Shown here: in pieces, positions 4,831 through 49,723 of the stretch
How positions within the stretch are numbered: the first letter of the stretch is position 1
Layout of the letters: every line of letters begins with the position of its first letter
Assembly (NCBI GenBank): GCA_964506245.1
Contig: CAZDKK010000018.1
Coordinates: forward strand, 973-64,972
From: an uncultured bacterium
GTDB taxonomy: Bacteria > Eisenbacteria > RBG-16-71-46 > CAIMUX01 > WJJG01
Reading direction: 5' to 3'
Length of the DNA stretch: 64,000 nucleotides
Position numbers and translations under genes: made by a program
The notes under the pieces: generated by a model
Databases searched by the model: none
Seen by the model: only the letters and a program-made list of their open reading frames with translations
What the model was told of the DNA's origin: nothing

Positions 4831-4875
4831 GTCGTGCGAACCGGGCGACGGTAACCCCTTTTCGGGAGGTTGGTC

Positions 4876-6537
4876 ATGGCATCTTGCCGGCGCGCGGCCC
4901 AGGGGCTCGGGCTCATCTTCACATTGGCGGTCAGCACCACGAGCGCGGCGCAGGCGGTCGACCTCGAGCCCGGTTGGCCGCAGGTCACGGGCTTCAGCGT
5001 GTCCCAGTCGGGCGTGGCGGCGCAGTTCGACACCGACCCGGAATGGGAGATCGGCATTGCCTCCCAGGACGGGTACGCCTACGTATTCAACCACGATGGC
5101 ACCATTCTCTCAGGCTGGCCGCGCTACATGGGGCCGGCCCTCTGGCCCGACCAGTACGCCTACTTCTGCTCCTCGCCCGCCGCGGTGGACCTCGATGAGG
5201 ACGGCCGGGACGAGCTCGTCGTCGGCAACTTCGACGGCCGGCTCTACGCCTTTCGCCGCGACGGCACCGCCATGCCCGGCTTCCCGGTCGCGCTCGCCTT
5301 CATGACCTTCTCGACCCCGGCCTGCGGCGACATCGACGGCGACGGCCGCCTCGAGATCGTGCTGGGCGACAACAATGGCTTCATCTATGCCTTCAACCAT
5401 GATGGCACGATCTGCTCCGGCTTCCCGTACTCGACGCCGTATGTGGTGCGCAATTCGGCAGCGCTGGGGGATCTCGACGGCGACGGGCTCGACGAGATCG
5501 CGATCACCGCGGACAACAGTTCCTACAACCTGGTGGTGCTGGACGGCAACGGCCAGATGATGCCGGGCTTCCCGCGGCTCATCGGCGTATCGGGGGCGGG
5601 CGCCTCGCCCAGCTTCGCAGATATCGACGCCGATGGCCGGCTCGACATCGTCATCGGGGCCCGCGATGGCACCCTCCACTGCCTGCGCGACGACGGCACC
5701 TACCTGCCCGGCTGGCCCATCGACGCCGGCTACTCGACCCACAGCTCGGCCGCGATCGCCAACCTCGACGCCGATCCCGAGCTGGAGTTCGTCCTCGGCA
5801 TGAACGACTCGCAGGTACGCGCCTACAACCACGACGCGACGCTGCTGCCCGGATGGCCGCAGGCGACCTCTTACTCGGTCTTCTCCTCGCCCTCCATCGG
5901 TGATCTGGACGGCGACGGTGCACTCGAGGTCGTGGTCGGAGAGAACACCGGCAAGGTCTACGCGTGGGAGATCGACGGCACACCGTTGCCCGGCTTCCCC
6001 CTCACCGACCCGACCTACACCATCTACTCCTCACCCCTGCTCGAGGATCTCGACCTCGACGGCCACCTCGAGCTGCTGGTGGGCTGCAATGACACGTGGA
6101 TCTACTGCTGGGATCTCGGGCCGGACACCTACAACCCGGACGGGTTGCCCTGGCCGAAGTGGCGCCGCCGCGCCGACAACGACGCGACCGTCCCGCTCAT
6201 CGACCCCGCATCGGTTCACGCGGCGGTCACCACGGGGCAGCGGCTCTCCGTCTGGCCCAATCCGATGTGCGCGACGGCGCACATCTCCTACCGACCGGCC
6301 GCACCTGGACCGGTAGTGCTGACCATCCACGACGCGCAGGGTCGTGCAGTGCGGCGGCTGGCGTCGGCCGCCACGGGGTGTGTGAGCGTGTCGACCGCCG
6401 GGGTGGCGGGCGCCGTCGCATCGCTCACCTGGGATGGGTGCGACGACCATGGTCGGTCCCTGCCCCACGGAATCTATCTGGTGCGCCTCCTGGCGGGGGA
6501 CGTGACGCAGACAGCGCGCGTGCTGGTGCTGCGGTAG
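4876..6537 (+). CDS. Secreted FG-GAP/VCBS repeat beta-propeller protein with C-terminal FlgD-Ig/T9SS-type-A-like domain
   Basis: Signal peptide; repeated SPA.(G/A)D(L/I)D.DG..EIV.G and GWP/GFP motifs; tail VWPNP...IHDAQGRAVRRL...WDGCDDHGRSLPHGIYLVRL...RVLVLR. Confidence 0.9.
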   Translation: MASCRRAAQGLGLIFTLAVSTTSAAQAVDLEPGWPQVTGFSVSQSGVAAQFDTDPEWEIGIASQDGYAYVFNHDGTILSGWPRYMGPALWPDQYAYFCSSPAAVDLDEDGRDELVVGNFDGRLYAFRRDGTAMPGFPVALAFMTFSTPACGDIDGDGRLEIVLGDNNGFIYAFNHDGTICSGFPYSTPYVVRNSAALGDLDGDGLDEIAITADNSSYNLVVLDGNGQMMPGFPRLIGVSGAGASPSFADIDADGRLDIVIGARDGTLHCLRDDGTYLPGWPIDAGYSTHSSAAIANLDADPELEFVLGMNDSQVRAYNHDATLLPGWPQATSYSVFSSPSIGDLDGDGALEVVVGENTGKVYAWEIDGTPLPGFPLTDPTYTIYSSPLLEDLDLDGHLELLVGCNDTWIYCWDLGPDTYNPDGLPWPKWRRRADNDATVPLIDPASVHAAVTTGQRLSVWPNPMCATAHISYRPAAPGPVVLTIHDAQGRAVRRLASAATGCVSVSTAGVAGAVASLTWDGCDDHGRSLPHGIYLVRLLAGDVTQTARVLVLR

Positions 6538-6598: not shown

Positions 6599-7258
6599 AT
6601 GGGACTGGCCGAAGACGTAGCTCGCTACTACGCGGAGCGCGCGTCCGTCTACGATGAGACTGCCGGGTATGCCGACTCTGAAGCGGAGCGGCTGCGCGAT
6701 CCCATCAAGGCGCGATACCAAGATGCCTTCAGAGGTCACGCCGTTCTCGAGATCGCCTGCGGAACAGGATACTGGACGCGGGTCATCGCTGAGGTGGCCG
6801 CCTCGGTGCTCGCGGTCGACATCCATCCTGCGATGATCGCGCAGGCCAGTCAGCGATGCAGCCACTTGCGCAATGTCAGGTTTCAGACAGCGGATGCGTA
6901 TGTGCTCGACGGTGTGCCTGCCGGATTCAGTGCCGCTCTCGGAGTCTGGTGGTGGTCGCACGTGCCCCGGGAGCGCCTGGCGGCCTTCCTGGCGATCTTG
7001 CACAGCAAGCTCCGGACAGGTGCTCTCGTCCTGTTCGCCGACCAGCTACCGTGCGAAGGGTACCGGCACAGGCAAGACCCGCTGGGGAATACGCTCGAGC
7101 AACGCATGCTGCCGGACGGTCGCTCATTTGAGATCGTGAAGAACTTCCCGACAGAAGCAGAAGTTCGCCGTGTTCTGGCGGACAGCGCGCGCAATGTCGA
7201 GTACGTCCAGCGTCCAGGGGAGGGCAGCTGGAGCGTAACCTACACACTGGGACACTGA
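6599..7258 (+). CDS. Class I SAM-dependent methyltransferase
   Basis: YYAERASVYD, VLEIACGTGYWT (motif I), VLAVD, ADAY, KNFPT. Confidence 0.9.
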   Translation: MGLAEDVARYYAERASVYDETAGYADSEAERLRDPIKARYQDAFRGHAVLEIACGTGYWTRVIAEVAASVLAVDIHPAMIAQASQRCSHLRNVRFQTADAYVLDGVPAGFSAALGVWWWSHVPRERLAAFLAILHSKLRTGALVLFADQLPCEGYRHRQDPLGNTLEQRMLPDGRSFEIVKNFPTEAEVRRVLADSARNVEYVQRPGEGSWSVTYTLGH

Positions 7259-7276
7259 GGTCGCCCGTAAGGGCCA

Positions 7277-7310
7277 GGATGCCGCCCGCGCCGGGGCCGG
7301 GGCGGCATCC
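7277..7310. terminator. GC-rich inverted repeat between convergent genes (possible bidirectional terminator)
   Basis: GGATGCCGCCC (7277-7287) pairs with GGGCGGCATCC (7300-7310); no U-tract. Confidence 0.5.
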
Positions 7311-7323
7311 CCGAGCGCTGCGC

Positions 7324-8004
7324 TCACTTCACCTCGATCGTGGCCTTGAGGAGCGTGAGCGGCTCGGTCGGCTGGCCGTTCTTGCTGCCTGCCTGCTCGA
7401 GCTTCTTGAGCGTATCCATCCCTTCGACGATCTCGCCGAAGATGCTGTACTTGCCATCCAGCCATGGCGCAGGCGCGAAGGTGAGGAAGAACTGGCTTCC
7501 GTCGGTACCCGCCCCGGCGTTCGCCATCGAGAGCAGCCCGGGCTTGTCATGCCTCACGTTGGGGCTGAACTCGCCCTGGTATTTGTATCCGGGGCCTCCG
7601 GTTCCGGTACCGAGCGGGCATCCACCCTGGGCCATGAAGCCGGTGATCACCCGGTGGAACTTGGTCCCGTCGTAGAAGCCCATGCGCGTCAGGTAGATCG
7701 TGCTGGTCACGTGCATGGGCGCGATGTCCGGCCGGAACTTGACGGTGATCGGCCCCTTGTTCGTCTCGAGCTTCCAGAAGTAGCTCTTCCCGGGCGTGAA
7801 GGTGACGACCTCGGGCATGGGAATGTGCGTTCGCCACCCGTCCTGGGCCTTGTCGATCGCGGCCTTGGCGACCTGCGCGTCGATCTTCGCCAGCGTAGCG
7901 TCGGTGGGGCCGCTCTTGTCGGTCCCCGATGATGATCCCTGCTGGGCGGCCGCGGTCACGACCATCGCGCACGCGAGCAGCGTGGTGATCCAAATGGATG
8001 TCAT
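7324..8004 (-). CDS. Secreted cyclophilin-type peptidyl-prolyl cis-trans isomerase
   Basis: FYDGTKFHRVITGFMAQGGCP.GTGTGGPGY, LLSMANAG..TDGSQFFLT, WLDGKYSIFG; signal peptide; SD GGAGGA before the ATG at 8004. Confidence 0.95.
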   Translation of the reverse strand: MTSIWITTLLACAMVVTAAAQQGSSSGTDKSGPTDATLAKIDAQVAKAAIDKAQDGWRTHIPMPEVVTFTPGKSYFWKLETNKGPITVKFRPDIAPMHVTSTIYLTRMGFYDGTKFHRVITGFMAQGGCPLGTGTGGPGYKYQGEFSPNVRHDKPGLLSMANAGAGTDGSQFFLTFAPAPWLDGKYSIFGEIVEGMDTLKKLEQAGSKNGQPTEPLTLLKATIEVK

Positions 8005-8117
8005 CGATTCCTCCTGCTTCTCTGAGGTTGGGTCTGTCCATGTGACTGCGGGTGACTCTACCCGGCCTGCGCTCCCCCGGCAATGGCGATGGCAACCGCT
8101 GGGCGATGCCGCGAGGT

Positions 8118-8220
8118 CGACGAATGTGCACCGGAACTGCACTCCTCGCACGCGGACGCTTGACCCTCGACGGGCAAATGCGCCCGTCTCTACGTGCTCC
8201 TCGCGTGGCACGGTTCCTGC
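8118..8220 (+). promoter_or_regulatory. sigma54 promoter with paired upstream activator-like sites (copy 1)
   Basis: TGGCACGGTTCCTGC at 8206-8220; 13-bp sites CGACGAATGTGCA (8118-8130) and TGCACTCCTCGCA (8138-8150). Confidence 0.65.
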
Positions 8221-9074
8221 GCAGTTCACCTCCCGTCGGATGTCACCCCGGAACGTACGACGCATGATCACCGGCGCGCATCCACTTCGAACCCAGTGAT
8301 AGGACGATCGGAGACGACAATTATGTCAAGACGATCGCCCGACTGACCGGAGCTCGATCTGAGGACGCGGGGGCTCGCCACGCCGGCGGCACTGTATGCC
8401 GGCCGCCGCACCCGAGTTCCGGTAGCGTAGTGACACCGCCGACATCACCTAGGAGTGGTCCCGAAGTGCCCTGGCTCTGCGCCAGCCGCCTCTTGGCCGC
8501 GGCGGCAACTCGGCGAGCCATCGGGTGATAGTCACGCTTCTTCGGTCTGCCTCCTGGAACTTTCGTACTCCTGCATGAGTCGGCTCTGCTCGAAGCCCGG
8601 GCTCATGCCGCGGACTGCTCGCCGGAGCACCTCCGCCGGGACGTCCGGTAGGGGGACCGAACATCCCCCATGCCATGGCCTGCGCCTCTGAATCGCGCCT
8701 GCTCGACCACTGTTCTAGAGATCCGATTGTCACAACGTGTTGCATGCGCGGCGACATTCACAGGCGCGAACACACCTCGCCAGATGGAGCGCGGATCGAC
8801 AGCGCGGCGAGGAAGTCGCGAGGGTGGACGCGCGCGGGTCACAGCGACCCGCCCTTTGCGGCCGGAGTGCAGAAGTACGAAGGAACGACCGTGGGAGGCA
8901 GCCGGTACGATCCCGTTCCACTGCAGGGTGTGACTCTGCCCACCGGAAGCTCGAATGCGAGCTCCGCCCGGAAAAGAATGGACACAGGAGTGCCCTTGCC
9001 TCTTGAAGCTGGTCGTGCTACTCATGGATTGCTCCTGTCGCCCGCGGTTGAGTTCACAGTCTTGGGAGGTCGCA

Positions 9075-9773
9075 ATGCGTGCTCATATGAATGTACTCTG
9101 CATACTCTGCATGCCCGTCTGTGCCGAACTCGCACTTGCCCAAAGTGGGTACCCGGATCCGGAGCGTTCCGTCGTGAGTCCATTGGACAGCATGGCGTAT
9201 CCACGCTTCATCGGAACATCGTCTGAGGAGAACGACATCTTCTGCAGGGTCACGGTCACCGTGAACGATGAGTACGGGGCCCCGATCGCTGGAGCCTACG
9301 TATTCATCTACAGCGCGGAGAGCTGCTGCGAGGCCATTTGCCAGTGCAGCAACGCCGTTTTCGATGGGTACACCAACTCAAGCGGCACCATTGATCTCTA
9401 CTGGAAGAGGAATGGATGCTGCAACTACCCCGATGCGGGTCAAGTAGTTGCCTACTCCCCGACATACCCCAGCGCAGGTGTAGTGCTCAGGTCGGTCGAC
9501 ATGCTCGTCAGTCCTGATTTTGACGGTGCTGCTGGGAACTGCCAAACGGAGATCGAAGACTGGACGTTCTTCGGATCTCAATATGGAGAAGGACCCGGCA
9601 ACCCCAGTATCTGTTCCGACTACAACGGAGACGGGCGGGTGGGCCCGGGCGACTTGGTAGTTTTCGGATCGGCATGGGGATCTGTGTGCCCCCCCTATGA
9701 CACGCAGGAGGAGGCCGCCGCCTCTAGCGCCCGAGATTCTTGCGGAATGCCCGGAGCAAGGCGCGCTTGGTAG
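9075..9773 (+). CDS. Secreted Cys-rich protein with Ig-like region and two dockerin/EF-hand-like Ca-binding motifs
   Basis: SD GGGAGGT, signal peptide, VTVTVNDEYGAPIAGAYV, SPDFDG...EIEDWTFFG and SDYNGDGRVGPGDLVVFGSAW. Confidence 0.7.
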   Translation: MRAHMNVLCILCMPVCAELALAQSGYPDPERSVVSPLDSMAYPRFIGTSSEENDIFCRVTVTVNDEYGAPIAGAYVFIYSAESCCEAICQCSNAVFDGYTNSSGTIDLYWKRNGCCNYPDAGQVVAYSPTYPSAGVVLRSVDMLVSPDFDGAAGNCQTEIEDWTFFGSQYGEGPGNPSICSDYNGDGRVGPGDLVVFGSAWGSVCPPYDTQEEAAASSARDSCGMPGARRAW

Positions 9774-10248
9774 GTCGCTGTCGACGGTGCCGGCGGAGGG
9801 CACTTGATCGGGAGATCAAGAGGCATCGGACTCGGGCAGCCATGGCCAGGTGAACCGCGCTGGCCTCGCGCATGGGCCGCGAATGCGCCCCCTGCTTCGG
9901 CAAGAGCTTTCTGCCGTTCAAGATGGCTCGGGGGAAGGTCGCACGATTTCGACATAGCCTCAGGGGCATGCGGGTCGGGATGCTAACGGGGGTGCTCGCG
10001 CACGTCTTGACCTGGTCTTGCTGCAAGGGTCTTCATCGCATGCTGGCAGTGTGGCGATGCATACGAACGTCCTAGAGGTCACCTGCTTCTCTGAGCTTGA
10101 GGACGTCCTCGAGCCTGCAGGCTAATTGACCTGGCTGGCTCTGCGACAGTAGTAGGTAGGCCTGCCACTCAAGTGCCCGGCGGATCCGTGTACGCTGGCC
10201 GACCGCGCCAACCGGAAGGACGCCACGCTTGGCCCACACCGACACAGC

Positions 10249-10351
10249 TGTCGAATCCGCACACCGACTGCGCTCTCGGCACGCCCTCGTGCCCGGACAA
10301 GACCCCAAGTGCAGTCCCGCGCTCACGTGCGTCAACTGGCACGCTTCCTGC
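10249..10351 (+). promoter_or_regulatory. sigma54 promoter with paired upstream activator-like sites (copy 2)
   Basis: TGGCACGCTTCCTGC at 10337-10351; sites TGTCGAATCCGCA (10249-10261) and TGCGCTCTCGGCA (10269-10281). Confidence 0.75.
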
Positions 10352-10441
10352 CTCTACACCCCGCGGCGGGCGGTGCTCCCATCCTCCGGATCCTTGAGAC
10401 CAGGGCTCGCCCGCGAGGATGTCGACGGCAGGAGGTTTGCG

Positions 10442-11320
10442 ATGAGGACCAGGATCCAACCATGGGGCGGCCCAATGGGAGTCGGCCTGATGGCCGTCGC
10501 CCTCTGTGCTCTGTCAGCCGGCCTCGGCTGCGGGCCGGCCGAGCTCGAGAGCCGCTGGAGCGGAAGCGAGGTGCGGATCGATGGCGTGGGCACAGAGTGG
10601 GAAGGGCAGACGACCGACTACAGCGACCAGCACCTCGCGGTCGGTGTCCGCAACGACAACGAGCATCTCTACGCCGCGCTCTTCATCAGCGATCTGCGCC
10701 TGCAGGCCCAGGTGCTGACGCGCGGCCTGACGATCTGGTTCGATCCGTCCGGGCAGAAGCTCAAGACCTTCGGGATCCGCTGCCCCGCCGCACTGGCGGG
10801 GGACCAGGCCCACGAGTTCACCCGCACCCTGCTCGACGGCGGCGACGTCGACTCTCTGATCGACGCCTACAAGGTGCAGGCCGACCAGGTGCAGCTTCTC
10901 GGGGGCGAGAGTGACGCCGCCTCCCCGGTCCCCATGGGCGCGAGCGGAGTCGAGGTCGCCTTTGGAGTCTGCGGGGGTCTGCTGACGTACGAGCTCGAGG
11001 TGCCCCTGGCGCCCAGCGCATCGAACCCAACTGCTGCGATACGGGTGCAACCCGGCGGAAGCTTCAGCGTCGGGCTCGAGACCAGAGGCTCCTGGCGCGA
11101 GGGGATGCGGGGCGCAGGCCCAGGCGGCGCAGGTCCCGGCGGCGGGCCGGGCGGCGGACGCGGCCGAGGACCAAGCGGCAGTCCCCCGGCAGGTGGGCCC
11201 GGAGGCCCTCCACCTGGAGGGCCCGGCGGCTCCGGTGGCCGCGACGGCTCGCAAGGGGCTCCGCAGTGGCTGAGCCTCTGGGCGAAGATCCGCTTGAGCG
11301 CCGCACCATCCCCGAAGTAG
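10442..11320 (+). CDS. Hypothetical lipoprotein with Gly/Pro-rich C-terminal tail
   Basis: Lipobox-like AGLG-C; VRIDGVGTEW..., AVGVRNDNEHLY, GLTIWFD; low-complexity GPGG repeats near the C-terminus. Confidence 0.75.
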   Translation: MRTRIQPWGGPMGVGLMAVALCALSAGLGCGPAELESRWSGSEVRIDGVGTEWEGQTTDYSDQHLAVGVRNDNEHLYAALFISDLRLQAQVLTRGLTIWFDPSGQKLKTFGIRCPAALAGDQAHEFTRTLLDGGDVDSLIDAYKVQADQVQLLGGESDAASPVPMGASGVEVAFGVCGGLLTYELEVPLAPSASNPTAAIRVQPGGSFSVGLETRGSWREGMRGAGPGGAGPGGGPGGGRGRGPSGSPPAGGPGGPPPGGPGGSGGRDGSQGAPQWLSLWAKIRLSAAPSPK

Positions 11321-11328
11321 CCACCGTG

Positions 11329-11431
11329 TGCGGATTCCGCAGTCGGCTGCGGTTTTTGCCGTCGACTCCGGGAGTTCTAGGGATGTAACCTGTCATTCTG
11401 ATTGATGTTACTCGGAGGTACGGTTTCTGCA
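11329..11431 (+). promoter_or_regulatory. sigma54 promoter with paired upstream activator-like sites (copy 3)
   Basis: GGTACGGTTTCTGCA at 11417-11431 (GG-N10-GC); palindrome TGCGGATTCCGCA (11329-11341) and TGCGGTTTTTGCC (11348-11360); AT-rich spacer. Confidence 0.7.
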
Positions 11432-11502
11432 TCCTGAGCGGGCGACTGGAAGGTCATGCGACCTGAATTCGCCCCCGCGGGCGATCAGCAAGGAGAGCCA
11501 GC

Positions 11503-12828
11503 ATGCGGAAATGGTGGATCGCGGGCCTGGTGGTGGTGGCGGCTGCTGCGCTCGTGTGGGTATTCGTGATCCGCGGGCGCGGGGAGAAGGTCTCCTACCG
11601 CTTCGTCGAGGTCACGCGCGGCGACGTGCAGTCGGTCGTCTCCAGCACGGGAACGCTGCAAGCCACGACGACCGTCGAGGTCGGCACCCAGGTTTCGGGC
11701 AAGATCGCGGAGATCTACGTCGACTTCAACGACCACGTCGTGAAGGACCGACTCCTGGCGCGCATCGACCCGCTGATCCTCCAGCAGGAAGTGCGGGCCG
11801 CCGAGGCCAGCATGGAGCGCAATCAAGCCGAGTACGCCCAGGCTGTGCGCGAGTTTGAGCGCATCAACCGCCTCTACGAGCGCCAGGTGGCCACCGAGAG
11901 CGAGTACTCGACCGCGCAGTATCAGCGCGACGTGGCCCAGGCCTCGCTCAAGTCGTCGCAGATCAACCTCGAGCGGGCACGTCAGAACTTGAGCTACACG
12001 GAGATCCGTGCCCCGATCAACGGCGTCGTCGTGAATCGCGCGGTCGACGTCGGCCAGACGGTGGCTGCCAGCTTCTCGGCCCCGCAGCTCTTCCTCATCG
12101 CGGAGGACCTCTCGAAAATGGAGATCCTCGCCTCGGTCGACGAGAGCGACATCGGGAAGATCTACAAGGGGCAGCCCGTCGAGTTCACGGTCCAGGCCCA
12201 CCCGAACGATACCTTCTCCGGCATGGTCGATCAGGTGCGGCTGCAGTCCACCATCTCGGAGAACGTCGTCAACTACTCGGTCGTGATCGCCGTCGACAAC
12301 CAGGACGGGCGCCTCCTGCCCGCGATGACGGCCACGGTCGAGTTCATCATTGCGCAGGCCAAGGACGTGCTGAGAGTCCCGAACTCCGCCCTGCGCGTGA
12401 AGCCCACCGAGGAGATGGCGTCGGTTGTGCGGGCGCAGATGGCTGAGCGTCGGCAGCAGCGCGAGGCCCAGGGAGGGGCCGACGTGGCTCGCGCCGCGGG
12501 GGCCGGCGCGCCGGGCGGGGCGGACAGGGCCGGCGGCCAGCATGGCGCCAACCCGGGCACGGGCTGGGCCATGTCCGGCGCCGCCGCTGGTTCGAGGGGG
12601 CCGACGCTCCTGTGGTTCCTCGATGATAGCGGCAAGGCGACCGCGCGGCCCGTGCGCGCGGGGATCACCGACGGTCAGTACACCCAGATCGAGGGCCCCG
12701 CGGAGATCAAGGAGGGGCTGCAGGTGATCGCCGCCATCGTGGGCGGATCGAGCGCGACCACCCCAGCGACCAATCCCTTCCAGCAAACGCAGCAGCGGCA
12801 GGGCCCTCCCCCGCCTCCGGGCATGTAG
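11503..12828 (+). CDS. MacA-like periplasmic adaptor subunit
   Basis: N-terminal TM; GTLQATTTVEVGTQVSGKI, IRAPINGVV..R.VDVGQTVAASF.APQLF, VDESDIGKI, LLPAMTA, VPNSALR. Confidence 0.95.
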   Translation: MRKWWIAGLVVVAAAALVWVFVIRGRGEKVSYRFVEVTRGDVQSVVSSTGTLQATTTVEVGTQVSGKIAEIYVDFNDHVVKDRLLARIDPLILQQEVRAAEASMERNQAEYAQAVREFERINRLYERQVATESEYSTAQYQRDVAQASLKSSQINLERARQNLSYTEIRAPINGVVVNRAVDVGQTVAASFSAPQLFLIAEDLSKMEILASVDESDIGKIYKGQPVEFTVQAHPNDTFSGMVDQVRLQSTISENVVNYSVVIAVDNQDGRLLPAMTATVEFIIAQAKDVLRVPNSALRVKPTEEMASVVRAQMAERRQQREAQGGADVARAAGAGAPGGADRAGGQHGANPGTGWAMSGAAAGSRGPTLLWFLDDSGKATARPVRAGITDGQYTQIEGPAEIKEGLQVIAAIVGGSSATTPATNPFQQTQQRQGPPPPPGM

Positions 12829-12838
12829 GAGGGGCGCG

Positions 12839-13663
12839 ATGGCCACGCGGAACCTGACCAGGACACGGGGCATGGGCCCCGGAGACGGAATCGGAGTGCG
12901 GGGCACCGAACCTCAGCACGTCATCGAGGCGCGGGACCTCACGAAGGTCTACCGCATGGGGCACAACGAGGTCTGGGCCCTGCACGGCGTGACGCTCGAG
13001 GTCTCGCCCGGCGAAATGATCGCCATCATGGGGGCATCCGGATCGGGCAAATCGACGCTGATGAACATCCTGGGCTGCCTCGACCGGCCGACATCGGGCT
13101 CGTATCTGCTCGACGGCACCCGCGTGGAGCTGCTGGGCCGCAACGATCTGGCCGACATCCGCAATCGGAAGATCGGGTTCGTGTTCCAGACCTACAACCT
13201 GCTCGCGCGCACCAGTGCCCTGGACAACGTCGAGATTCCCCTGCTCTACGACCGGTCCGGCCAGCGGCTGGACACGCGCCGGCTGGCCGCGGAGGCGCTC
13301 GCACGCGTGGGGCTGGCGGATCGGGCCGCGCACGAACCCGGCGAGCTCTCGGGCGGCCAGCAGCAGCGTGTGGCCATCGCGCGGGCGCTGGTGACGCGGC
13401 CGGCGATCATCCTGGCCGACGAGCCGACCGGGAACCTGGACACGCACACCTCCATCGAGGTGATGGAGCTCTTCCAGACGCTCAACCAGGAGGGCGTCAC
13501 GCTGCTCATCGTCACCCACGAGCACGACATCGCTCAATACGCCAAGCGCATCATCGAGCTGCGGGACGGGCAGGTGGTCCGGGACGTGCCGGTCGAGAAC
13601 CGGCGCGACGCGGCCCGCGACGTCCGGCAGTTCAGAGGCGCCCAACCGGCAGGTGTGTCATGA
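12839..13663 (+). CDS. MacB/LolD-like ABC transporter ATP-binding protein
   Basis: Walker A GASGSGKS, signature LSGGQQQRVAIARAL, Walker B ILADEPTGNLD, VTHE. Confidence 0.95.
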   Translation: MATRNLTRTRGMGPGDGIGVRGTEPQHVIEARDLTKVYRMGHNEVWALHGVTLEVSPGEMIAIMGASGSGKSTLMNILGCLDRPTSGSYLLDGTRVELLGRNDLADIRNRKIGFVFQTYNLLARTSALDNVEIPLLYDRSGQRLDTRRLAAEALARVGLADRAAHEPGELSGGQQQRVAIARALVTRPAIILADEPTGNLDTHTSIEVMELFQTLNQEGVTLLIVTHEHDIAQYAKRIIELRDGQVVRDVPVENRRDAARDVRQFRGAQPAGVS

Positions 13664-14877
13664 AGTCGTTGACGCTGATCCGGATCGCCGGCCGCAGCAT
13701 CCTGAAGAACAAGATGCGCACGCTGCTCACCATGTTGGGGGTCATCATCGGCGTCGGCGCCGTCATCATGATGGTGGCGATCGGCGCCGGCGCCCAGAGT
13801 CAGATCGAGCAGCGCATCCGCGGCCTGGGCACCAACATGCTGGTCGTCACCCCCAGCTTCACCTCGCAGCAGGGCGTGAGCCAGGGGGCACAGAGCTTCA
13901 ACCGCCTCAGGCTGGACGACGCCGAGGCGATTCGCAACCAGGGCTTTCTGCTCGCCGCGGTCTCGCCTGTCATCATGACGCGCACGCAGGCGGTCAGCGT
14001 GCAGGGCAACTGGCGCACCTTTGTCTACGGCGTTCACCCCGACTACCAGACGATCCGCGACTGGAAAGTCGCGTCGGGCAGCTTCTTCACCACCACCGAC
14101 ACGCGCGGCATGCGGAAAGTCGTCGTGGTCGGCAAGACGGTCGCCAACGCGTTGTTTCCGGACGAGGATCCCGTCGGTCGCGAGATTCGGCTCCGGCACG
14201 TGCCCTTCACGATCATCGGGGTCCTGGAGTCCAAGGGGCAGACCGCGGGCGGGTCGGATCAGGATGACCTGATTCTGGCCCCCTACACCACCGTCAACAC
14301 CCGCCTCTCGGGCCACCAGTTCATCGCCCAGATCCTGGCCAGCGCCGTCTCGGCCGCCGAAATCCCAGCCGCCCAGGAGGAGATCCGCGCCATCATGCGC
14401 GACGCCCACGATCTCGGCGAGAACGAAGCCGACGACTTCCAGGTGCGCACCCAGGATGATCTGGCCGAGGCGGCTCAGGAGACGACGAAGGTGATGACGC
14501 TGCTCCTGTCCGCGATCGCCAGCATCTCCCTCCTGGTCGGCGGCATCGGGATCATGAACATCATGCTCGTCTCGGTGACCGAGCGAACGCGTGAGATTGG
14601 CCTGCGCCTCGCCCTGGGAGCCCGCGGCAGCGACGTGCTGACGCAGTTCCTGGTCGAGAGCGTGGTGATGAGCCTGACGGGCGGGTTGATCGGGGTGGCC
14701 GTGGGATTCGCCGGCAGCGCCCTGATTGGGGCCATCACCGGCTGGAGCACCGTGATCTCGCCCGCCACGGTGTTGCTCGCCCTGGTTTTCGCTGCCTCGG
14801 TGGGCATCTTCTTCGGCTACTACCCCGCTCGGCGGGCGGCCGCCCTCGATCCGATCGAGGCGTTGCGCTACGAGTAG
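13660..14877 (+). CDS. MacB-like ABC transporter permease
   Basis: RTLLTMLGVIIGVGAVI; FtsX-type C-terminus GGIGIMNIMLVSVTERTREIGLR.ALGA; PARRAA.LDPIEALRYE; ATGA overlap with the ATPase. Confidence 0.95.
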   Translation: MKSLTLIRIAGRSILKNKMRTLLTMLGVIIGVGAVIMMVAIGAGAQSQIEQRIRGLGTNMLVVTPSFTSQQGVSQGAQSFNRLRLDDAEAIRNQGFLLAAVSPVIMTRTQAVSVQGNWRTFVYGVHPDYQTIRDWKVASGSFFTTTDTRGMRKVVVVGKTVANALFPDEDPVGREIRLRHVPFTIIGVLESKGQTAGGSDQDDLILAPYTTVNTRLSGHQFIAQILASAVSAAEIPAAQEEIRAIMRDAHDLGENEADDFQVRTQDDLAEAAQETTKVMTLLLSAIASISLLVGGIGIMNIMLVSVTERTREIGLRLALGARGSDVLTQFLVESVVMSLTGGLIGVAVGFAGSALIGAITGWSTVISPATVLLALVFAASVGIFFGYYPARRAAALDPIEALRYE

Positions 14878-14892
14878 CGTGTGGGAGGAACG

Positions 14893-16239
14893 ATGACCGC
14901 AACCCGGCTGTTCACCGCGGCGATCCTGTACGCGGCGCTGATCTGCCCCGCGCTGGCCGGTGAGCCACGCACCATCACCTTCTCCGAGGCGATCGCGATC
15001 GCCCTCGAGCAGAACACCACGCTGCGCCGCACCGAGAACGAGACGGCCCTCGACCGCATCGGTGCGCGCCAGGCCGCTTTGAACTTCCTGCCCGACCTGC
15101 GCATGAGCGTCTCGGGTTCCCGCAGATACCAGTGGTGGTCCGACGACGTCACGGACTCGTCGGGCAGCGGCTCGTCGAGCAGCGGCTCGCTCAGCGCGGG
15201 CCTCTCCTCGGGTCTGACCCTGTTCGATGGGCTGGCCAACGTGGCGGAGTTGCGTGAGGCGCGGCTGAAGGAGGAAGCCGGGCGCAAGGAACTCGACCGC
15301 GCGCGCCAAACCGTCGTGTTCCAGGTGCTGACCGGGTACCTCGCCATGATCGAAGCACAGGAACAGCAGCGCGTGCGCGAGGAGAATCTCTCGGCCCAGG
15401 AAGACCAGGAGCGCGAGGTGCAGGCCCAGGTGGACGGCGGCACGCGCCCGATCTCCGACCTCTACCAGCAGCAGGCGAACGTGGCCGCAGCGCGGCTGGC
15501 CCTGGTCGAGGCGCGCCAGACGTACGAGATGAGCTGCATCGACCTCGTCCAACTGCTCCAGCTCGACCCCAAGGGAACCTACGTCTTCGAGGTGCCCCCG
15601 CTGCCGGAGGCCGAGCTGCAAGCACCGGAGCCGGACCTGGTGACGCTCCTCGACCGGGCGCTCGTCGGGCGACCCGATCTCGATGCCGCCACGATCCGCG
15701 AGGAGGCAGCCGGGCAGCGCGTGCGGATGGCCCGGGCGGGCTACTGGCCTTCGCTGTCGCTGTCGGCCGGCTACGGCGTCAGCTACAGCGACGCCAGCAG
15801 CGGCGACGTCTGGGACCAATTCGAGGATCGGCAGTCGGGCTCGCTCGGGTTGTCGCTCTCCTTGCCCCTGTTCGACCGCCTGACCACGCGCCACCAGGTT
15901 GAACAGGCCCGGATCAACACCGCCAATGCCCGGCTCACGTGCGCGGACTTGCGGCAGGAGGTCGCGCTGCAGGTGCGCCGCGCCGTGCTCGACGTGACCG
16001 CGGCGCGCGAGCAGCTGCGCGCGGCCGATGCCGGGGAACGCGCGGCGCGCCAAGCGCTCGCGGCCAATGAGGAACGCTACGCGGCCGGCGCATCGACGCT
16101 GTTCGAGGTGTCGCAATCGCGGGCCGACTGGGTGGCCGCGGCCAGCGAGCGCGTGCGCGCACGGTACAACCTCCTGTGGCAGGAACGGGTGCTCGAGTAC
16201 TACGTCGGCACCCTCGACCCCGCGGGCCGCCTGTCCTGA
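14893..16239 (+). CDS. TolC-family outer membrane efflux protein
   Basis: Signal peptide; ITFSEAIAIALEQN; YWPSLSLSAGY; LSLSLPLFD; two heptad-rich OEP repeats. Confidence 0.9.
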   Translation: MTATRLFTAAILYAALICPALAGEPRTITFSEAIAIALEQNTTLRRTENETALDRIGARQAALNFLPDLRMSVSGSRRYQWWSDDVTDSSGSGSSSSGSLSAGLSSGLTLFDGLANVAELREARLKEEAGRKELDRARQTVVFQVLTGYLAMIEAQEQQRVREENLSAQEDQEREVQAQVDGGTRPISDLYQQQANVAAARLALVEARQTYEMSCIDLVQLLQLDPKGTYVFEVPPLPEAELQAPEPDLVTLLDRALVGRPDLDAATIREEAAGQRVRMARAGYWPSLSLSAGYGVSYSDASSGDVWDQFEDRQSGSLGLSLSLPLFDRLTTRHQVEQARINTANARLTCADLRQEVALQVRRAVLDVTAAREQLRAADAGERAARQALAANEERYAAGASTLFEVSQSRADWVAAASERVRARYNLLWQERVLEYYVGTLDPAGRLS

Positions 16240-16247
16240 GGGTGCAG

Positions 16248-17591
16248 ATGCGATCGCAGGCGACAGAGGACGGCCGCGTGCCGAGGCGGGTCTTCTCCGA
16301 AGGCGTGTGGGCGCACTGGGGTTTGCTCGTGAGTGCGTTCGCGCTGGGTGGCGTGCTGATCCTGGCCTCTTGGTCCAACTACCAAGCCGCGCGCGACGCC
16401 ACCTACGCCCTCCACCTCGGCGAGACGCGGATCTTCGAGCGCGAGATCATGGGCGCACTGCACGACAACGACGACCTGCCCGAGCCGCGCGCGCTGCCCG
16501 CGGTCCTCGACAGCTTGCTCTCTCAGCTATCGAGCGATGGCCTGCGCTACCTGGCCATGCTCGATGCCGACGGCACCGTCTCCGCCGCGGCGGGCACGCC
16601 GCTGGGTGCACCCGGCGCAACCGCAGGCCAAGGGGACGAGCCGGGCCCGGCCATGAGCACCGTGGGATCGCGCGTGCGGGTCTCCTACTTCCGCCCGTGG
16701 ATCCCGCGCACCGGACAAGAGCGGCAGCCATCTCGGCAGCCCCCGCCGGAGGACGAGCCCCGGCGCGAGCGCCGGCACGGCGGCCTCGTCTTCGAGTTCG
16801 AGCCCCGGATCGCCATCCATCTCATGGACCGCGCCGGCCAGCTCCTGGCCTTCGGGTTGGCCGCGGCCGTGCTCATGATGTTCGTGGGGGCCGTCTCGTG
16901 GGGACTGTCGCGCCGCTACGAGCGCGCCATGCGCCGTCTCGAACACGAACGCCGCTTGAGCCTGCTCGGCGAGATGTCCGCCGTGCTGGCGCACGAGATC
17001 CGCAACCCGCTCGCGTCGCTCAAGGGCCACGCGCAGCTCCTGGCCGAGCGACTGCCCGCCGAGGGCAGCGATCGCGGTAAGGCCGAGCGTGTCGTTCGGG
17101 AGGCGTCGCGCCTCGAAGCGCTGACGACCGACTTGCTGGATTTTGTGCGCCTCGGACCGCTCGATCGCCAGCCGGCGGATCCTGCGGCGCTCTTGCGCCA
17201 AGCGGTCGAGGAGGTGGACGCGGAGGGCTTCGAGCTCGATCTGGCCGGCGCGCCTGATCGCTGGCTGGTCGACGGCCCCCGCCTGCACCAGGCCCTCACC
17301 AACCTGCTGCGCAACGCGCGGCAGTCCACGCCCCCGGGCGCTCGGAGACCGGTGGCGAGCATGGGCATCGCCGGCCGCGGCCTGTTCATCACCATCCGCG
17401 ATTTCGGCGACGGCCTGCCGAAGGGGAAGGAGGACCGTCTCTTCGACCCGTTTTTCACGACGCGGGCGAGCGGTACCGGCTTGGGGTTGGCGGTCGCGCG
17501 ACGAATCGTCGAGTTGCACAAGGGCGAGCTCACCGCGGCGAACCATCCGGAGGGCGGGGCGGTGTTCCAGGTGTCGTTGCCGGGCGAGTGA
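16248..17591 (+). CDS. Membrane sensor histidine kinase
   Basis: Two TM segments; H-box LAHEIRNPL; N-box NLLRNA; DFGDG; FDPFFTT..SGTGLGLAV. Confidence 0.95.
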   Translation: MRSQATEDGRVPRRVFSEGVWAHWGLLVSAFALGGVLILASWSNYQAARDATYALHLGETRIFEREIMGALHDNDDLPEPRALPAVLDSLLSQLSSDGLRYLAMLDADGTVSAAAGTPLGAPGATAGQGDEPGPAMSTVGSRVRVSYFRPWIPRTGQERQPSRQPPPEDEPRRERRHGGLVFEFEPRIAIHLMDRAGQLLAFGLAAAVLMMFVGAVSWGLSRRYERAMRRLEHERRLSLLGEMSAVLAHEIRNPLASLKGHAQLLAERLPAEGSDRGKAERVVREASRLEALTTDLLDFVRLGPLDRQPADPAALLRQAVEEVDAEGFELDLAGAPDRWLVDGPRLHQALTNLLRNARQSTPPGARRPVASMGIAGRGLFITIRDFGDGLPKGKEDRLFDPFFTTRASGTGLGLAVARRIVELHKGELTAANHPEGGAVFQVSLPGE

Positions 17592-17637: not shown

Positions 17638-18969
<1,332 letters not shown>

Positions 18970-19066: not shown

Positions 19067-22000
19067 TTACCGCACGACCAGCACCCGCGCCGACCGCTCG
19101 ACGATCTCGTCCGCCGCGCGCACGCGAGCCCGCGCCAGGTAGATGCCGCTTGGGTTCGACCGGCCGCCGTCCCACGTGTAAGCGTGGACGCCCGGCCCCT
19201 CGCTCCCCTGCTGCAGCACCGCCACCCGCCGGCCGGAGAAGTCGAACAGGCTGAGCTCGACCTCGGCCGCCGCCGGCAGGTCCAGCCGCACCGCCGCGCG
19301 CCCATCGCCCAGGGGCCGCGCCGACAGCGCCACGCTCGTAGGCACCGGCGGCTCGGGCGTGATCGGGTCTACCGGGACGATCGGGTCGGCACCCGGGTCG
19401 GGATTCGGATCTTCCCCGATCCCCGGCTCCTCCACGCTGCTCATGTCGGTCACGATCTCGATCTCGACCCGGTCGGCGTAGTAGTGCGTGATGTAGGTCC
19501 CGCTCACGCCCGGCGCGCCCGTTTCCAGCGTGAACTCGCCGCTGCGCGAGCCGCAGTTCAGGATCGTGAACCGCTGCCCGGTCACCGGGGTGTAGCCGCC
19601 CGCCGGTCGCACGACCAGCCGCCCGGAGAGGCTCGCCTGCCCGCTCACCTGCAGGTGGTCGAACTGGCCCGCGGTCGTGCCGCCGATCTCGACCCAGTAG
19701 GTGCCGTCGGCCGTCTGGGCATAGTCGCCCTGGATCGCCAGAGACCCGGTGGAGTTGGCCGTGGCGCCGGGGGCCATCCCGCCGCCGCACGTGACGTTGC
19801 CCTGCACTGTGCCGATCCCGCTCAGCGTACCACCGTTCACCGTCGCCGGACCGGGTGTGACAATGAGCGTGCCGTTGACGCTCGTGCGGCCGTAGTCGGC
19901 CTCGTCGTTGCCTGTTTGCGTGAAGGCGCCGTTGACCGTCACGGTCGAGCCCGCGCCGATCGTCAACCGGCCGGAGTCGACGGCCAGGTCGCCGGACGTG
20001 GTCAGGCTCGGCCCCCCGGTGAGGGCCAGATCGCCGGCCGACTTGATCCTGTTAAGCGAGGCCAGCACCAGGGTCGTCCCGTCGTCGCTGTAGAGGTTCG
20101 CGCTCGGGCCCTCGAGCAGAACCCGCGCGTCGAGCTGCTGGATGTTCGCGCCGAGCAGGCGCATCGTGCTATTGGGCCGCACGAGCCACGCCCCTCCGGT
20201 CAGCGTCCCGGAGGCGTAGTTGTTGATCGTGCTCGAGGTCCGGAAGACGCTCCCGCCGGTCGCTTCCGCGGTGCCGTTGTTGGTGAGGGTGGTCTGGACT
20301 TCCAGTCTGGCTCCGTTCTGGGCTCGCATGGTCCCGTAGTTGAACTTCTCCTGGTTGTGCAGCAGGAGCGTGCGCCCCGCTACATCTGCCAGGACCGTGC
20401 CGTAGTTCCGGAGATAGACCCCCACGACGCCGTCGCCGCGAATCGTGTGGCTGGCTGTTTGCGTGACCGACGCGTAGTAGTCTTCGAGCCGCGCGTCCCA
20501 CACATCCCCGGTGGTCTGCAGGACGATCTGACCGCTGCCGTCGAGCGTCTGACCATAGCCCGTGGCATAGAAGTAGGTATCGTCGCCGGTGTGATCCGAG
20601 TTGATCGTGACCGTCCCATTGTTCGTGAAGGAACACGTCATGAATACCTGCTGGCCCGCGTGGATATCCAGGCGTCCTTGATTCGTCACGTGGTCGAGGT
20701 ACGTGCCGCTGTAGCATTCCACCGCGCCGCCAGCCGCCGTCGCGAGGCTTCCCCCGTACACCCAGGTGCGAAGCAGCACCCGGCCCCCGTCGGCCAGCAG
20801 GAGGCCCGGCGCCTCCTGGTTGACCGGGTTGACGACGTTGAGCACGCCTCCCCCGGTTGCCTTGCACGTGGCATAGTTGTACAGGTTCTCGCACTGTAGC
20901 TGGAGCGTGCGGCCGTTGACGTCGGCGCTCACCAGGCCGTGGTTCCAGAGGTAGACGGTCACAACCCCCTCGCCGTGGATGGTGTGCCCCGCGCTTTGGA
21001 TCAGCGTGCCGTAGTACCCCTGGAGCCGCGCGTCCCAGATGTCGCTGCCTGACGTCTGCAGCAGAATGTCGCCGCTGCCCTGCAGATTGTGGCTGTAGCT
21101 GCTGACATAGAGGATGGCGTCGTTCCCGCTGGCCTCCGAGTTGACGGTGATCCGTTCGTTGTTTGTCGTCGTCGCACCCTGCAGCCAGAGCTGGCCTCCA
21201 CCGGCGATGGCGACCGGGCCCTGGTTCGTGACGTTGCGCAGCGTGCAGCCTCCTTGCAGGACGCGCAGGCGTCCGGCCTGAGTGCCATCCGCGAACGTCG
21301 TCCCGTTGTAGCAGTCGATCGTGCTCGTGCCGGTCGTCTCGAGCCGGCCGCCGGTCACCTCGCTCGCCAGCCGCACCGTGCCGCCGTCGGCCAGGATGCG
21401 CCCGGCAGCCCCCTGGGCGACCGGGGCGGTCACGTCGAGCGTGCCGCCGCCCACCGCCTGAAAGATCGCCTGGTTGTCCTTGCTGTCCTGGTAGATCCCC
21501 AGCGTGCGGCCGCTGACGTCGGCGCTGACCAGCCCGTAGTTGTTTAGGGTGATACCGACGACGCCCTCGCCGTGGATGGTGTGGCCAGCAGTTTGAACCA
21601 ATCTGCCATAGTAGGACGGCAGCCGGGCGTCCCAGATGTCGCCCCCGGAGGTCTGCAGGCGGATGTCGCCGCTGCCGTTGAGCGCCAGTCCGTAGTTCGC
21701 CACGTACAGGCAGGCGTCGTCGCCGCTCTGCTCCGGGTTGACCCAGATCGTCCCGTCGTTGGTGATTGCACTGCCGCACAGGAACGCCTGCTGCCCCGCT
21801 GGGACATGGAGCCGGCCCAGGGTGGTGATGTCATACAGCTGGCAGCCGGCCTGGCCCTCGATCACACCGTTGTGGTCCGAGTCGAAGGTGCCACCGGTGA
21901 CCGTGCCGCCATAGATGCGCACGATCCCCCCGTCGGCCAGGATGAGACCACTGCTGCCCTGGTTGACGGTGATGCCGTCCAGCCGCAGGATCCCGTTGTT

Positions 22001-22795
22001 GGTGGCGGCGAAAACACCGTTGTTGGTCTGCGTCTCATACGCGAGCGCCAGAACATGCCCGCTGTCGTCGGCGTCGATCCGCCCGGCATTGTGGGTGTCC
22101 AGCGTGATCCGGCCCGACCCGCGGATCGTGTGATCGGCCCCCTGGTACAGGGAGCCATAGTAGGGGGCGAGGTACGCCTCTTCCGGGTTGCCGTCGGTCT
22201 GAAGCACCAGCTCGCCCGGACCATCCAGCGCGCAGCCGTACCCCGAGATGTAGAGCCTGGCCGACCCGGTGCTCGGAAGCGAACCGACCCGAATCACGCC
22301 GCTATTGTGGGTACTGCCATTGGTGTAATACCAAACGTTGGTGGGCACGAGCAGCTGCCCCGTGGAGGCAAGCGTGAGCGCCCCCGCCAGGTACGCGTTG
22401 TGTCCCGCTAGGATCGTACCGCTGCTGTGCAGCCCCGCCGGTTGGTAGAGGTCCATGCGCCGATTGCCCAGGTTGAGCGTCGCCGCCACGTTGTTCTGGT
22501 CCAGCTGGTCGAAGCCCGCGTCGCTGTCGAGCGTGATCGTGTAGGCGCCCGATCCCGCAGGGATGATCGCGCTTTCCCCACTCTCGTTTGGAACGTCCTG
22601 CGGGTCCCAGTTGGAGGCGCTCCACCAGTTGCCCCCGCCCGGGTTGACCCAGGTGATGGTCTCGGCGCGAGATCCCCCCGTGCTGGTCACGAGCATCAGA
22701 CAGAGAATCGAGAGCGCCTGCGACCGCAGCGCGTCCCTCGTCCCCCGCCTCGCGTCCGTCCCGCTCCGCTCACTCGCCTTCGTGCAAGGGTGCAT
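19067..22795 (-). CDS. Large secreted beta-helix/autotransporter-passenger-like repeat protein with FlgD-Ig/T9SS-like C-terminal domain
   Basis: SD AAGGAGG; long signal peptide; [18 protein letters not shown]; four long internal repeats (D.WDARL..YY..(L/V).Q.A.HTI.G.GVV); acidic Pro-rich linker; tail [12 protein letters not shown]...WDGG...SGIYLAR...RVLVVR. Confidence 0.85.
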
Positions 22796-49644: not shown

Positions 49645-49723
49645 TCTTGTGGAGTCGACTTGCGACCGATTGGCAGTGTGGCTGCGTGCTATCGTGACAG
49701 GAAGTCCATGGGGTATTTCGGGA

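Follow-up and report, generated by a model that had tools for sequence, protein, structure and literature searches.

The 64-kb stretch of bacterial DNA presented above (hereafter the window; G+C content 68.7%) contains, within a 3.3-kb motif area, three predicted sigma-54 promoters that are each preceded by a pair of 13-bp dyads, and this arrangement raises the question of which protein binds the dyads and which genes it controls. An earlier interpretation made from the letters alone (the sequence-only reading) had taken the promoters to be a mini-regulon of the local two-component system. On the basis of comparison with related loci, we estimate a probability of about three in four that the dyads (TGCGGAWTCCGCA) are enhancer sites of the NtrC-family regulator encoded at 17638-18969. 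Contigs identical to the window occur in sludge metagenomes. The promoter elements are the following.

8118-8150, + strand: promoter-1 enhancer, sites 8118-8130 (CGACGAATGTGCA) and 8138-8150 (TGCACTCCTCGCA), 20 bp apart
8206-8221, + strand: promoter 1 core, TGGCACGGTTCCTGCG (short form TGGCACGGTTCCTGC), GG at 8207-8208 and GC at 8219-8220
10249-10281, + strand: promoter-2 enhancer, sites 10249-10261 (TGTCGAATCCGCA) and 10269-10281 (TGCGCTCTCGGCA), 20 bp apart
10337-10352, + strand: promoter 2 core, TGGCACGCTTCCTGCC (short form TGGCACGCTTCCTGC), GG at 10338, ~90 nt 5' of the start codon of p4
11329-11360, + strand: promoter-3 enhancer, sites 11329-11341 (TGCGGATTCCGCA, a perfect palindrome) and 11348-11360 (TGCGGTTTTTGCC), 19 bp apart
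11416-11431, + strand: promoter 3 core, AGGTACGGTTTCTGCA (short form AGGTACGGTTTCTGC), GG at 11417-11418 and GC at 11429-11430, ~70 nt 5' of the operon that follows

In all three cores, GG and GC are exactly 10 nt apart in a TGGCAC-N5-TTGC-like context, as in -24/-12 promoters. No sequence in the window matches TGGCAC-N5-TTGC better than the cores at 8206 and 10337, which have 9 of the 11 specified positions each and agree with one another at 14 of 15 bases; the promoter 3 core is a GGTAC/CTGC variant, unremarkable by itself, and the same GGTAC variant (TGGTACGACTTCTGCA) stands behind a site pair 5' of the kinase-regulator operon in the related locus L005. The site consensus is a dyad of the form TGC-N7-GCA with inner arms GGA/TCC, and at each promoter GG lies 57 bp past the end of the second site. 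The site centres are ~63 and ~83 bp before GG, roughly -88 and -108 from the predicted start. This position fits the norm because it falls within the 80-150 bp from the start site at which sigma-54 enhancers usually lie (PMC4987338); a typical distance between activator site and promoter has been given as <100 nt (PMC4641369).

A weight matrix derived solely from sites in other genomes was applied to both strands of the window, ~128,000 positions in all. The two top-scoring sites were 11329 (20.5 bits) and 10249 (16.2 bits), followed at some distance by their partners 11348 (9.5 bits, rank ~26) and 10269 (6.1 bits, rank ~120); these scores are partly circular, since the relatives' sites had been located with a consensus from this window. 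For a composite we required a core scoring 16 or more, a pair of sites spaced by 19-21 bp and an offset between 56 and 58 bp. Three such composites were found in the window, all on the + strand and at the promoters listed above; in 300 simulations of first-order Markov sequence, 0.01 were expected per 128 kb and the maximum was 1. The -24/-12 boxes that the sequence-only reading had placed at 8206, 10337 and 11417 are thus all present (the third core begins at 11416, with its GG at 11417), and its distance of 57 bp from the second site to GG is exact at each promoter. It had also described six TGC-N7-GCA-like 13-bp sites 19-20 bp apart; their coordinates and spacing hold, but the word "like" is generous for the promoter-1 pair (3.4 and 2.2 bits). 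The palindrome that it had singled out as the best site is that at 11329, which heads the ranking of the window.

The candidate binder and the genes that the promoters would serve are encoded close by.

10442-11320, + strand: p4, a 292-aa lipoprotein with a predicted CBM9/DOMON-like beta-sandwich and a Gly/Pro-rich linker
11503-12828, + strand: adaptor of an ATP-binding cassette (ABC) efflux pump
12839-13663, + strand: ABC ATPase of the pump
13660-14877, + strand: MacB_PCD/FtsX permease of the pump
14881-16239, + strand: outer-membrane factor of the pump
16176-17591, + strand: sensor histidine kinase with HisKA, HATPase_c and two membrane segments
17638-18969, + strand: response regulator of the NtrC family, a sigma-54 activator and the protein proposed to bind the sites

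Judged by its translation, the regulator is a complete NtrC-type activator, with a receiver domain, an AAA+ domain with GAFTGA and a Fis-type helix-turn-helix (HTH) domain. Its Pfam domains are Response_reg, Sigma54_activat, AAA_lid_14 and HTH_8, the translation shows ITDLRMPG (Asp52), a Walker A motif, LFLDEI, GAFTGA and the Fis-type HTH at the C terminus, and the nearest solved structures are Aquifex NtrC1 entries. It scored below the NCBIfam cut-offs of AtoC (428 bits, cut-off 714), NtrC (409, 559), PEP_resp_reg (404, 503) and ZraR (349, 760), and likewise of NtrX and every other named equivalog. It is the sole sigma-54 activator gene in the window. The membrane segments of the kinase flank a periplasmic domain of ~150 aa, and its best-scoring named family was ZraS, at 160.6 against a cut-off of 479; translation may start at the ATG at 16248 instead of 16176. 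The operon from promoter 3 is tightly packed and runs from adaptor through ABC ATPase, MacB-type permease, outer-membrane factor and kinase to the regulator, which is the last gene. Because promoter 3 heads an operon that ends in the kinase and regulator, autoregulation is predicted.

Support for the assignment comes from related loci. Orthologues of the regulator at 60-78% identity were found in Eisenbacteria-like bacteria, Gemmatimonadota, Myxococcota and Acidobacteriota. A scan with the regulator protein, with one genome per species, gave 80 loci, 14 of which were orthologous (regulator 60-71% identity, kinases 40-57%) and belong to Gemmatimonadales, Longimicrobiales, several Myxococcota and one Acidobacteriota bin; in the remaining 66, generic sigma-54 activators with 42-48% identity are encoded. 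At the strict matrix threshold, the orthologue loci (237 kb) yielded 17 site pairs, spread over 14 of 18 loci, and the 66 other-activator loci (1.05 Mb) yielded none. A scan with the window palindrome, which is independent of the relatives, detected a strong pair plus core in the window, L003, L005, L006 and orthologue loci alone, and in none of the 66 controls. The orthologues share the HTH signature GNRR..AAE.LGIG.RTLY.KLKRY, whereas the control activators have other signatures.

Orthologue loci have one or two strong TGC-N7-GCA sites 43-166 bp ahead of a good sigma-54 core, and this block sits 5' of the kinase-regulator operon throughout, with the exception of L067, in which the order of genes is unclear and the pair lies 166 bp before the core. 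A pair and a core precede the kinase-regulator operon in L003, L005, L007, L008, L010, L013, L014, L015, L018 and L019, and L011 has one strong site. What the motif-bearing operon begins with varies: pump genes in L008 and L014, a secreted protein or lipoprotein gene in L010, L011, L013 and L019, and the kinase gene itself, with no pump, in L007, L015 and L018. Pump gene order is common to the window, L003, L006, L008, L009 and L014. In L003 the whole gene order is that of the window, with site pairs and cores ahead of both the p4 homologue and the adaptor gene; a pair and core also precede the adaptor gene in L006 (an Eisenbacteria bin), and in L005 they are found before p4 and, separately, before an operon of a small gene, kinase and regulator. 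The p4 promoter arrangement is kept at homologous genes in L003, L005 and L087, the last being the locus of the closest p4 homologue. L087 lies outside the matrix set, and there TGCGGTATCCGCA-N7-TGCGGGATCCGCA ends exactly 57 bp before TGGCACGCCTGTTGCC. Distant p4 homologues are under control of an extracytoplasmic function (ECF) sigma factor or an OmpR-type regulator and have no motif, and therefore the motif tracks the regulator and not the target gene. A metagenome scan with the kinase added one close relative, L092 (87% identity), whose contig begins inside the kinase gene and has no promoter.

The offset between second site and GG is 55-58 bp in the window, L003, L005, L006, L087 and L014, and it is 43, 45, 51, 54, 54, 69, 76, 79 and 166 bp in the more distant orthologue loci. 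The two sites of a pair are 19-21 bp apart in the close clade, with a range of 18-34 bp over all loci. Since the offset is nearly constant in the close clade and scattered elsewhere, the fixed 57 bp is a feature of the clade rather than a property of the regulator family. Over all loci, the offsets were too few and too scattered for a claim about helical phasing.

These comparisons bear directly on the sequence-only reading and, on the whole, favour it over the alternatives considered below. A matrix scan of relatives, of the kind that it had suggested, gives pairs in 14 of 18 orthologue loci and 0 of 66 controls, and its choice of the 17638 regulator as candidate binder gains support from a motif that tracks the orthologues of this regulator, is absent from the control loci and goes with a shared HTH signature. 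Gene order likewise backs the autoregulation that it had predicted, with the regulator as the last gene of the promoter-3 operon. Its "identical geometry" stands within the window and the closest clade but not beyond (43-166 bp), and the likeness of promoters 1 and 2 stems partly from duplication. It had named loss of the geometry in relatives as a result that would speak against it; tandem sites and core are conserved there, and the exact offset only in the closest clade. As for the mini-regulon of three promoters, promoters 2 and 3 have predicted targets, while promoter 1 has no evident target for ~0.85 kb. Operators of autoregulated activators are commonly assigned by comparison in this way, from the co-occurrence of a motif with orthologous regulators (the approach of PMC4641369), and we assign the operator on this ground; the two dyads of each promoter lie within 80-150 bp of the predicted start and are conserved with the orthologues, as is expected of sigma-54 enhancers.

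In the mechanism that we propose, the membrane kinase would sense a periplasmic or envelope signal and phosphorylate Asp52 of the regulator. Regulator dimers would then fill the two sites, with centres about two helical turns apart at ~88 and ~108 bp before the start, and assemble into an active AAA+ ring, for which cooperative assembly the two-turn spacing would be suited. A short DNA loop would bring the ring to the sigma-54 RNA polymerase at the -24/-12 core, and ATP hydrolysis would open the promoter. The output of promoter 2 would be the lipoprotein gene p4 and that of promoter 3 the pump-kinase-regulator operon, giving positive autoregulation, and promoter 1 would be a duplicated, weaker copy with a long leader toward the orphan p3. 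Further elements of the area that enter the argument are listed here.

7960-8030: 5' end and ribosome-binding region of a cyclophilin gene (gene on the minus strand, 7324-8004), with a degenerate copy at 10029-10099
9075-9773, + strand: p3, an orphan open reading frame (ORF) of 232 aa, rich in Cys and low in G+C, with a start that resembles a signal peptide
9099-9134: a fourth strong site pair, 9099 (TGCATACTCTGCA, 12.9 bits) and 9122 (TGCCGAACTCGCA, 13.0 bits), 23 bp apart
11385-11411, + strand: dyad GTAAC-N17-GTTAC in the stretch from the promoter-3 enhancer to the core; it ends 5 nt before GG

Besides the scatter of offsets and the partial circularity of the matrix, several observations speak against this picture or parts of it. 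The window does not encode rpoN. The promoter-1 sites rank only ~289 (8118) and ~449 (8138) in the window, and no gene follows promoter 1 for ~0.85 kb. The third and fourth best sites of the window form the fourth pair, which lies within the first (signal-peptide) codons of p3. The second site of promoter 3 (11348) overlaps a terminator-like hairpin and could be merely the T-run of a p4 terminator. Four of the 18 orthologue loci are without a pair: L009 and L017, both of which are cut off upstream, and also L012 and L016. Finally, at the p4 promoter of L006 (1518-1640), two good sites are followed 57 bp 3' by TTGGCAT but without GC at -12, so that a canonical GG-N10-GC is missing from the expected place; this is either a non-canonical core or a sequence error.

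Among the alternatives, the one that survives best concerns promoter 1 alone, which might be a decaying by-product of a local duplication and lie outside the working regulon, so that only promoters 2 and 3 are regulated; we doubt this explanation but take it seriously. The segment 7960-8290 is collinear with 10029-10441, including the degenerate cyclophilin 5' end (68% identity; local score 41 versus 20 +/- 2.4 in shuffles), and therefore promoters 1 and 2 are paralogues whose common geometry is partly inherited. Decay would account for promoter-1 sites that score far below those of promoter 2. It would also agree with the ~1.07 kb at 8005-9074, which has no codon periodicity and no credible ORF and is unusually long for a compact bacterial genome, with a next ORF that is an orphan of atypical composition. 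No p4 pseudogene was found 3' of promoter 1 when the p4-family profile was compared with the six frames of 8200-10441. On the other hand, what the two copies have kept in common lies mainly in the functional elements (identity of 88% in the core and 69% in each site), while the 55-nt spacer has drifted to the background level (31%) and has nevertheless kept its exact length despite a 62-nt indel just upstream. This pattern suggests that promoter 1 is still under selection, in its elements as well as in the distance between them. Only 2 of 63,968 positions have a 20-bp pair that scores at least as high as the promoter-1 pair at both members, and no terminator-like site was found on the + strand between promoter 1 and p3. 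Promoter 1 is probably active. A reading of its enhancer as an NtrC-like element (TGCACCGGAACTGCA, 8127-8141) was rejected, as this is 15 bp rather than 17 bp long and has a poor right arm.

The sole candidate target of promoter 1 is p3, for which no homologue but itself was found among 5.8 billion proteins and nothing credible in Pfam at E up to 5; its G+C content at third codon positions exceeds that at first and second positions in the central part only. A tblastx comparison of 8005-10441 with all loci returned low-complexity noise only. Contigs of four sequencing runs that match 7000-12500 are of low depth and identical or fragmentary, with no informative promoter-1 variant, and the joints that they suggest are supported by just 22-24 letters. 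Between the two copies lie 1.7 kb with the non-coding stretch and the low-G+C orphan gene, an arrangement like that left by an insertion of foreign DNA in which the adjoining promoter region was duplicated.

A more elaborate proposal would have promoter 1 and the pair at 9099-9134 make an activator-dependent, non-coding leader or RNA of ~0.85 kb that controls p3, with the promoter-3 enhancer doubling as the terminator of p4. We consider this improbable. An Rfam scan of 7000-12000 with E up to 1 returned no RNA family, and so no known riboswitch or small RNA after promoter 1. Near the fourth pair there is no canonical sigma-54 core on either strand, only poor matches with scores of 13.5-15. A GG-N9-GC element (TGGCGTATCCACGCT, GG at 9194) found by eye 60 bp 3' of this pair was not counted because of its wrong spacing.

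It is also quite unlikely, in our judgement, that the dyads are bound by another protein encoded elsewhere, either an activator or a repressor, and that the local regulator uses different sites. Only 64 kb of the genome are visible, and the motif is similar in its outer arms, TGC...GCA, to the NtrC enhancer, the 17-bp TGCACC(A/T)4TGGTGCA (PMC4987338), so that related regulators might cross-recognise the sites. However, the motif accompanies the orthologous kinase-regulator pair in at least three phyla, even in loci without pump and p4 (L007, L015 and L018), it is absent from the 66 other-activator loci and from the p4 homologues under ECF-sigma or OmpR-type control, and the orthologues share a distinctive recognition helix.

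For promoter 3, a further alternative is that its paired sites are only an intrinsic terminator of p4 and no enhancer. A terminator-like hairpin at 11337-11352, followed by T5 (to 11357), does lie inside the promoter-3 enhancer, 17 nt after the p4 stop codon; it consists of the right arm of site 11329 and the left arm of site 11348 (CCGCAG-UCGG-CUGCGG, then U5) and has a predicted energy of -18.9 kcal/mol. Yet its z-score is only -1.75, 6 of 200 shuffles fold as well, and any two tandem palindromic sites give such a hairpin by construction. In addition, L003, L006 and L014 hold two good sites at the same position without a T-run, and 11329 is the top site of the window. The two roles are compatible, and the element may be both the terminator of p4 and the enhancer of the next promoter; terminator function alone is very unlikely. 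An origin of the entire pattern by chance or from the composition of G+C-rich sequence has next to no probability and is, as far as sequence statistics go, already refuted: ~100 GG-N10-GC cores scoring at least 16 are expected by chance in the window, and neither the third core nor the promoter-1 sites stand out by themselves, but the composite occurs far in excess of expectation, is kept in independent genomes and is lacking in the controls.

The spacer of promoter 3 holds one more conserved element. The GTAAC dyad is found at the same place before the pump operons of L003 (10928-10954, with GTTAG) and L006 (2877-2903), it is missing from the p4 promoters, and only three other matches to GTAAC-N17-GTTAC were found in 1.55 Mb. 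It may be the site of a second regulator or of a bending protein. Inspection of both strands of the spacer by eye gave no canonical site for integration host factor (WATCAANNNNTTR). In L003, the leader from this promoter to the adaptor gene (10975-11100) contains short tandem repeats, with GTGCCTGATCCAGGG-like units followed by GGGCTTCATCCGGA-like units.

The predicted target of promoter 2, p4, has no Pfam or NCBIfam family and no LTXXQ or Metal_resist match. Its structure model (mean predicted local distance difference test score, pLDDT, of 79) best matches family-9 carbohydrate-binding modules and the DOMON-like subunits of nitrite oxidoreductase and ethylbenzene dehydrogenase (E ~1e-5, template-modelling scores 0.3-0.45). 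According to this model, p4 is an exported ligand-binding beta-sandwich with a Gly/Pro-rich linker; in the family, the last beta-strand comes after this long linker. Relatives of p4 are unnamed proteins of Eisenbacteria, Latescibacteria and other candidate phyla, and the homologues P0002-P0052 adjoin envelope-related regulators, MacB-type pumps or TonB-dependent receptors in several candidate phyla. A Latescibacteria homologue adjoins an ECF sigma factor, a Metal_resist/LTXXQ protein and a MacB-type pump, a neighbourhood that fits an envelope-related role of p4. The pump of the window has the Pfam domains of a MacB-type tripartite exporter (MacB_PCD, FtsX, ABC_tran, HlyD_D23 and OEP). Its proteins fell short of the MacA and MacB equivalog cut-offs, and we therefore call it MacB type and not an orthologue of Escherichia coli MacAB.

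The proposed circuit is of an ordinary, well-known kind, although the regulator family is unstudied. With NtrB-NtrC and glnAp2 of enteric bacteria it shares a two-component sigma-54 activator of receiver-AAA+-Fis-HTH architecture, at least two dyads on one helix face ~80-150 bp before a -24/-12 promoter (PMC4987338), a regulator gene within the regulated operon and the outer arms TGC...GCA (PMC4987338). It differs in its sites, which are 13 bp rather than 17 bp long and thus do not match the NtrC operator, in a regulator that scored 409 bits against the NtrC equivalog cut-off of 558.6, in predicted targets that are a pump and a lipoprotein instead of nitrogen assimilation genes, and in a kinase that is a membrane protein with a periplasmic domain. 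Such a kinase, paired with a sigma-54 response regulator, is found in ZraS-ZraR of E. coli and Salmonella, which serves envelope and zinc stress and whose regulator activates its own operon and a separately transcribed gene for an exported envelope protein, zraP (PMC4987338), as is predicted here from sequence. However, kinase (160.6 versus 479) and regulator (349.2 versus 760) are far under the ZraSR cut-offs, the promoters are tandem and not divergent, and the pump would be co-transcribed with kinase and regulator. Furthermore, p4 has a CBM9/DOMON-like fold and not the LTXXQ type of ZraP and CpxP, so that the system does not belong to ZraSR-ZraP.

The pump has the components of MacAB-TolC, namely a periplasmic adaptor, a MacB_PCD/FtsX permease, an ABC ATPase and an outer-membrane factor, but ATPase and permease are separate polypeptides, the outer-membrane factor is within the operon, scores are under the MacA and MacB cut-offs, and control would be by a sigma-54 two-component system. 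The activator regulons of Desulfovibrio vulgaris (PMC4641369) are similar in having an autoregulated activator and a conserved dyad 5' of sigma-54 promoters, with most sites within ~100 nt, and differ in lineage, regulator family and motif. Full-text literature searches found no description of the motif and turned up no characterised MacAB-type system under sigma-54 control. A 2025 survey reported that sigma-54 promoters are enriched before FtsX-like permeases and left regulator and operator unnamed (PMC12316311).

The locus offers an operator that can be tested, TGCGGAWTCCGCA in tandem, and the minimal regulon of a two-component system of the NtrC family that is as yet uncharacterised and is shared by mostly uncultured lineages (Eisenbacteria-like, Gemmatimonadota and Myxococcota). 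The regulon would consist of the system's own operon, the MacB-type efflux pump and the CBM9/DOMON-like lipoprotein. This would give a named regulator for the link between sigma-54 and FtsX-type ABC systems left unnamed by the survey (PMC12316311), and the motif could be used for annotating regulons in metagenome-assembled genomes. The understanding of sigma-54 activation is unchanged, as the architecture is that of the textbook.

Apart from the regulon, several large secreted proteins of the window (4870-6537, 19067-22795 and 49544-52381; with FG-GAP, CotH/malectin and other domains) end in a FlgD_ig-type domain. The same kind of end is seen in L005, L089 and L090, and it looks like a sorting or anchoring domain typical of the lineage.

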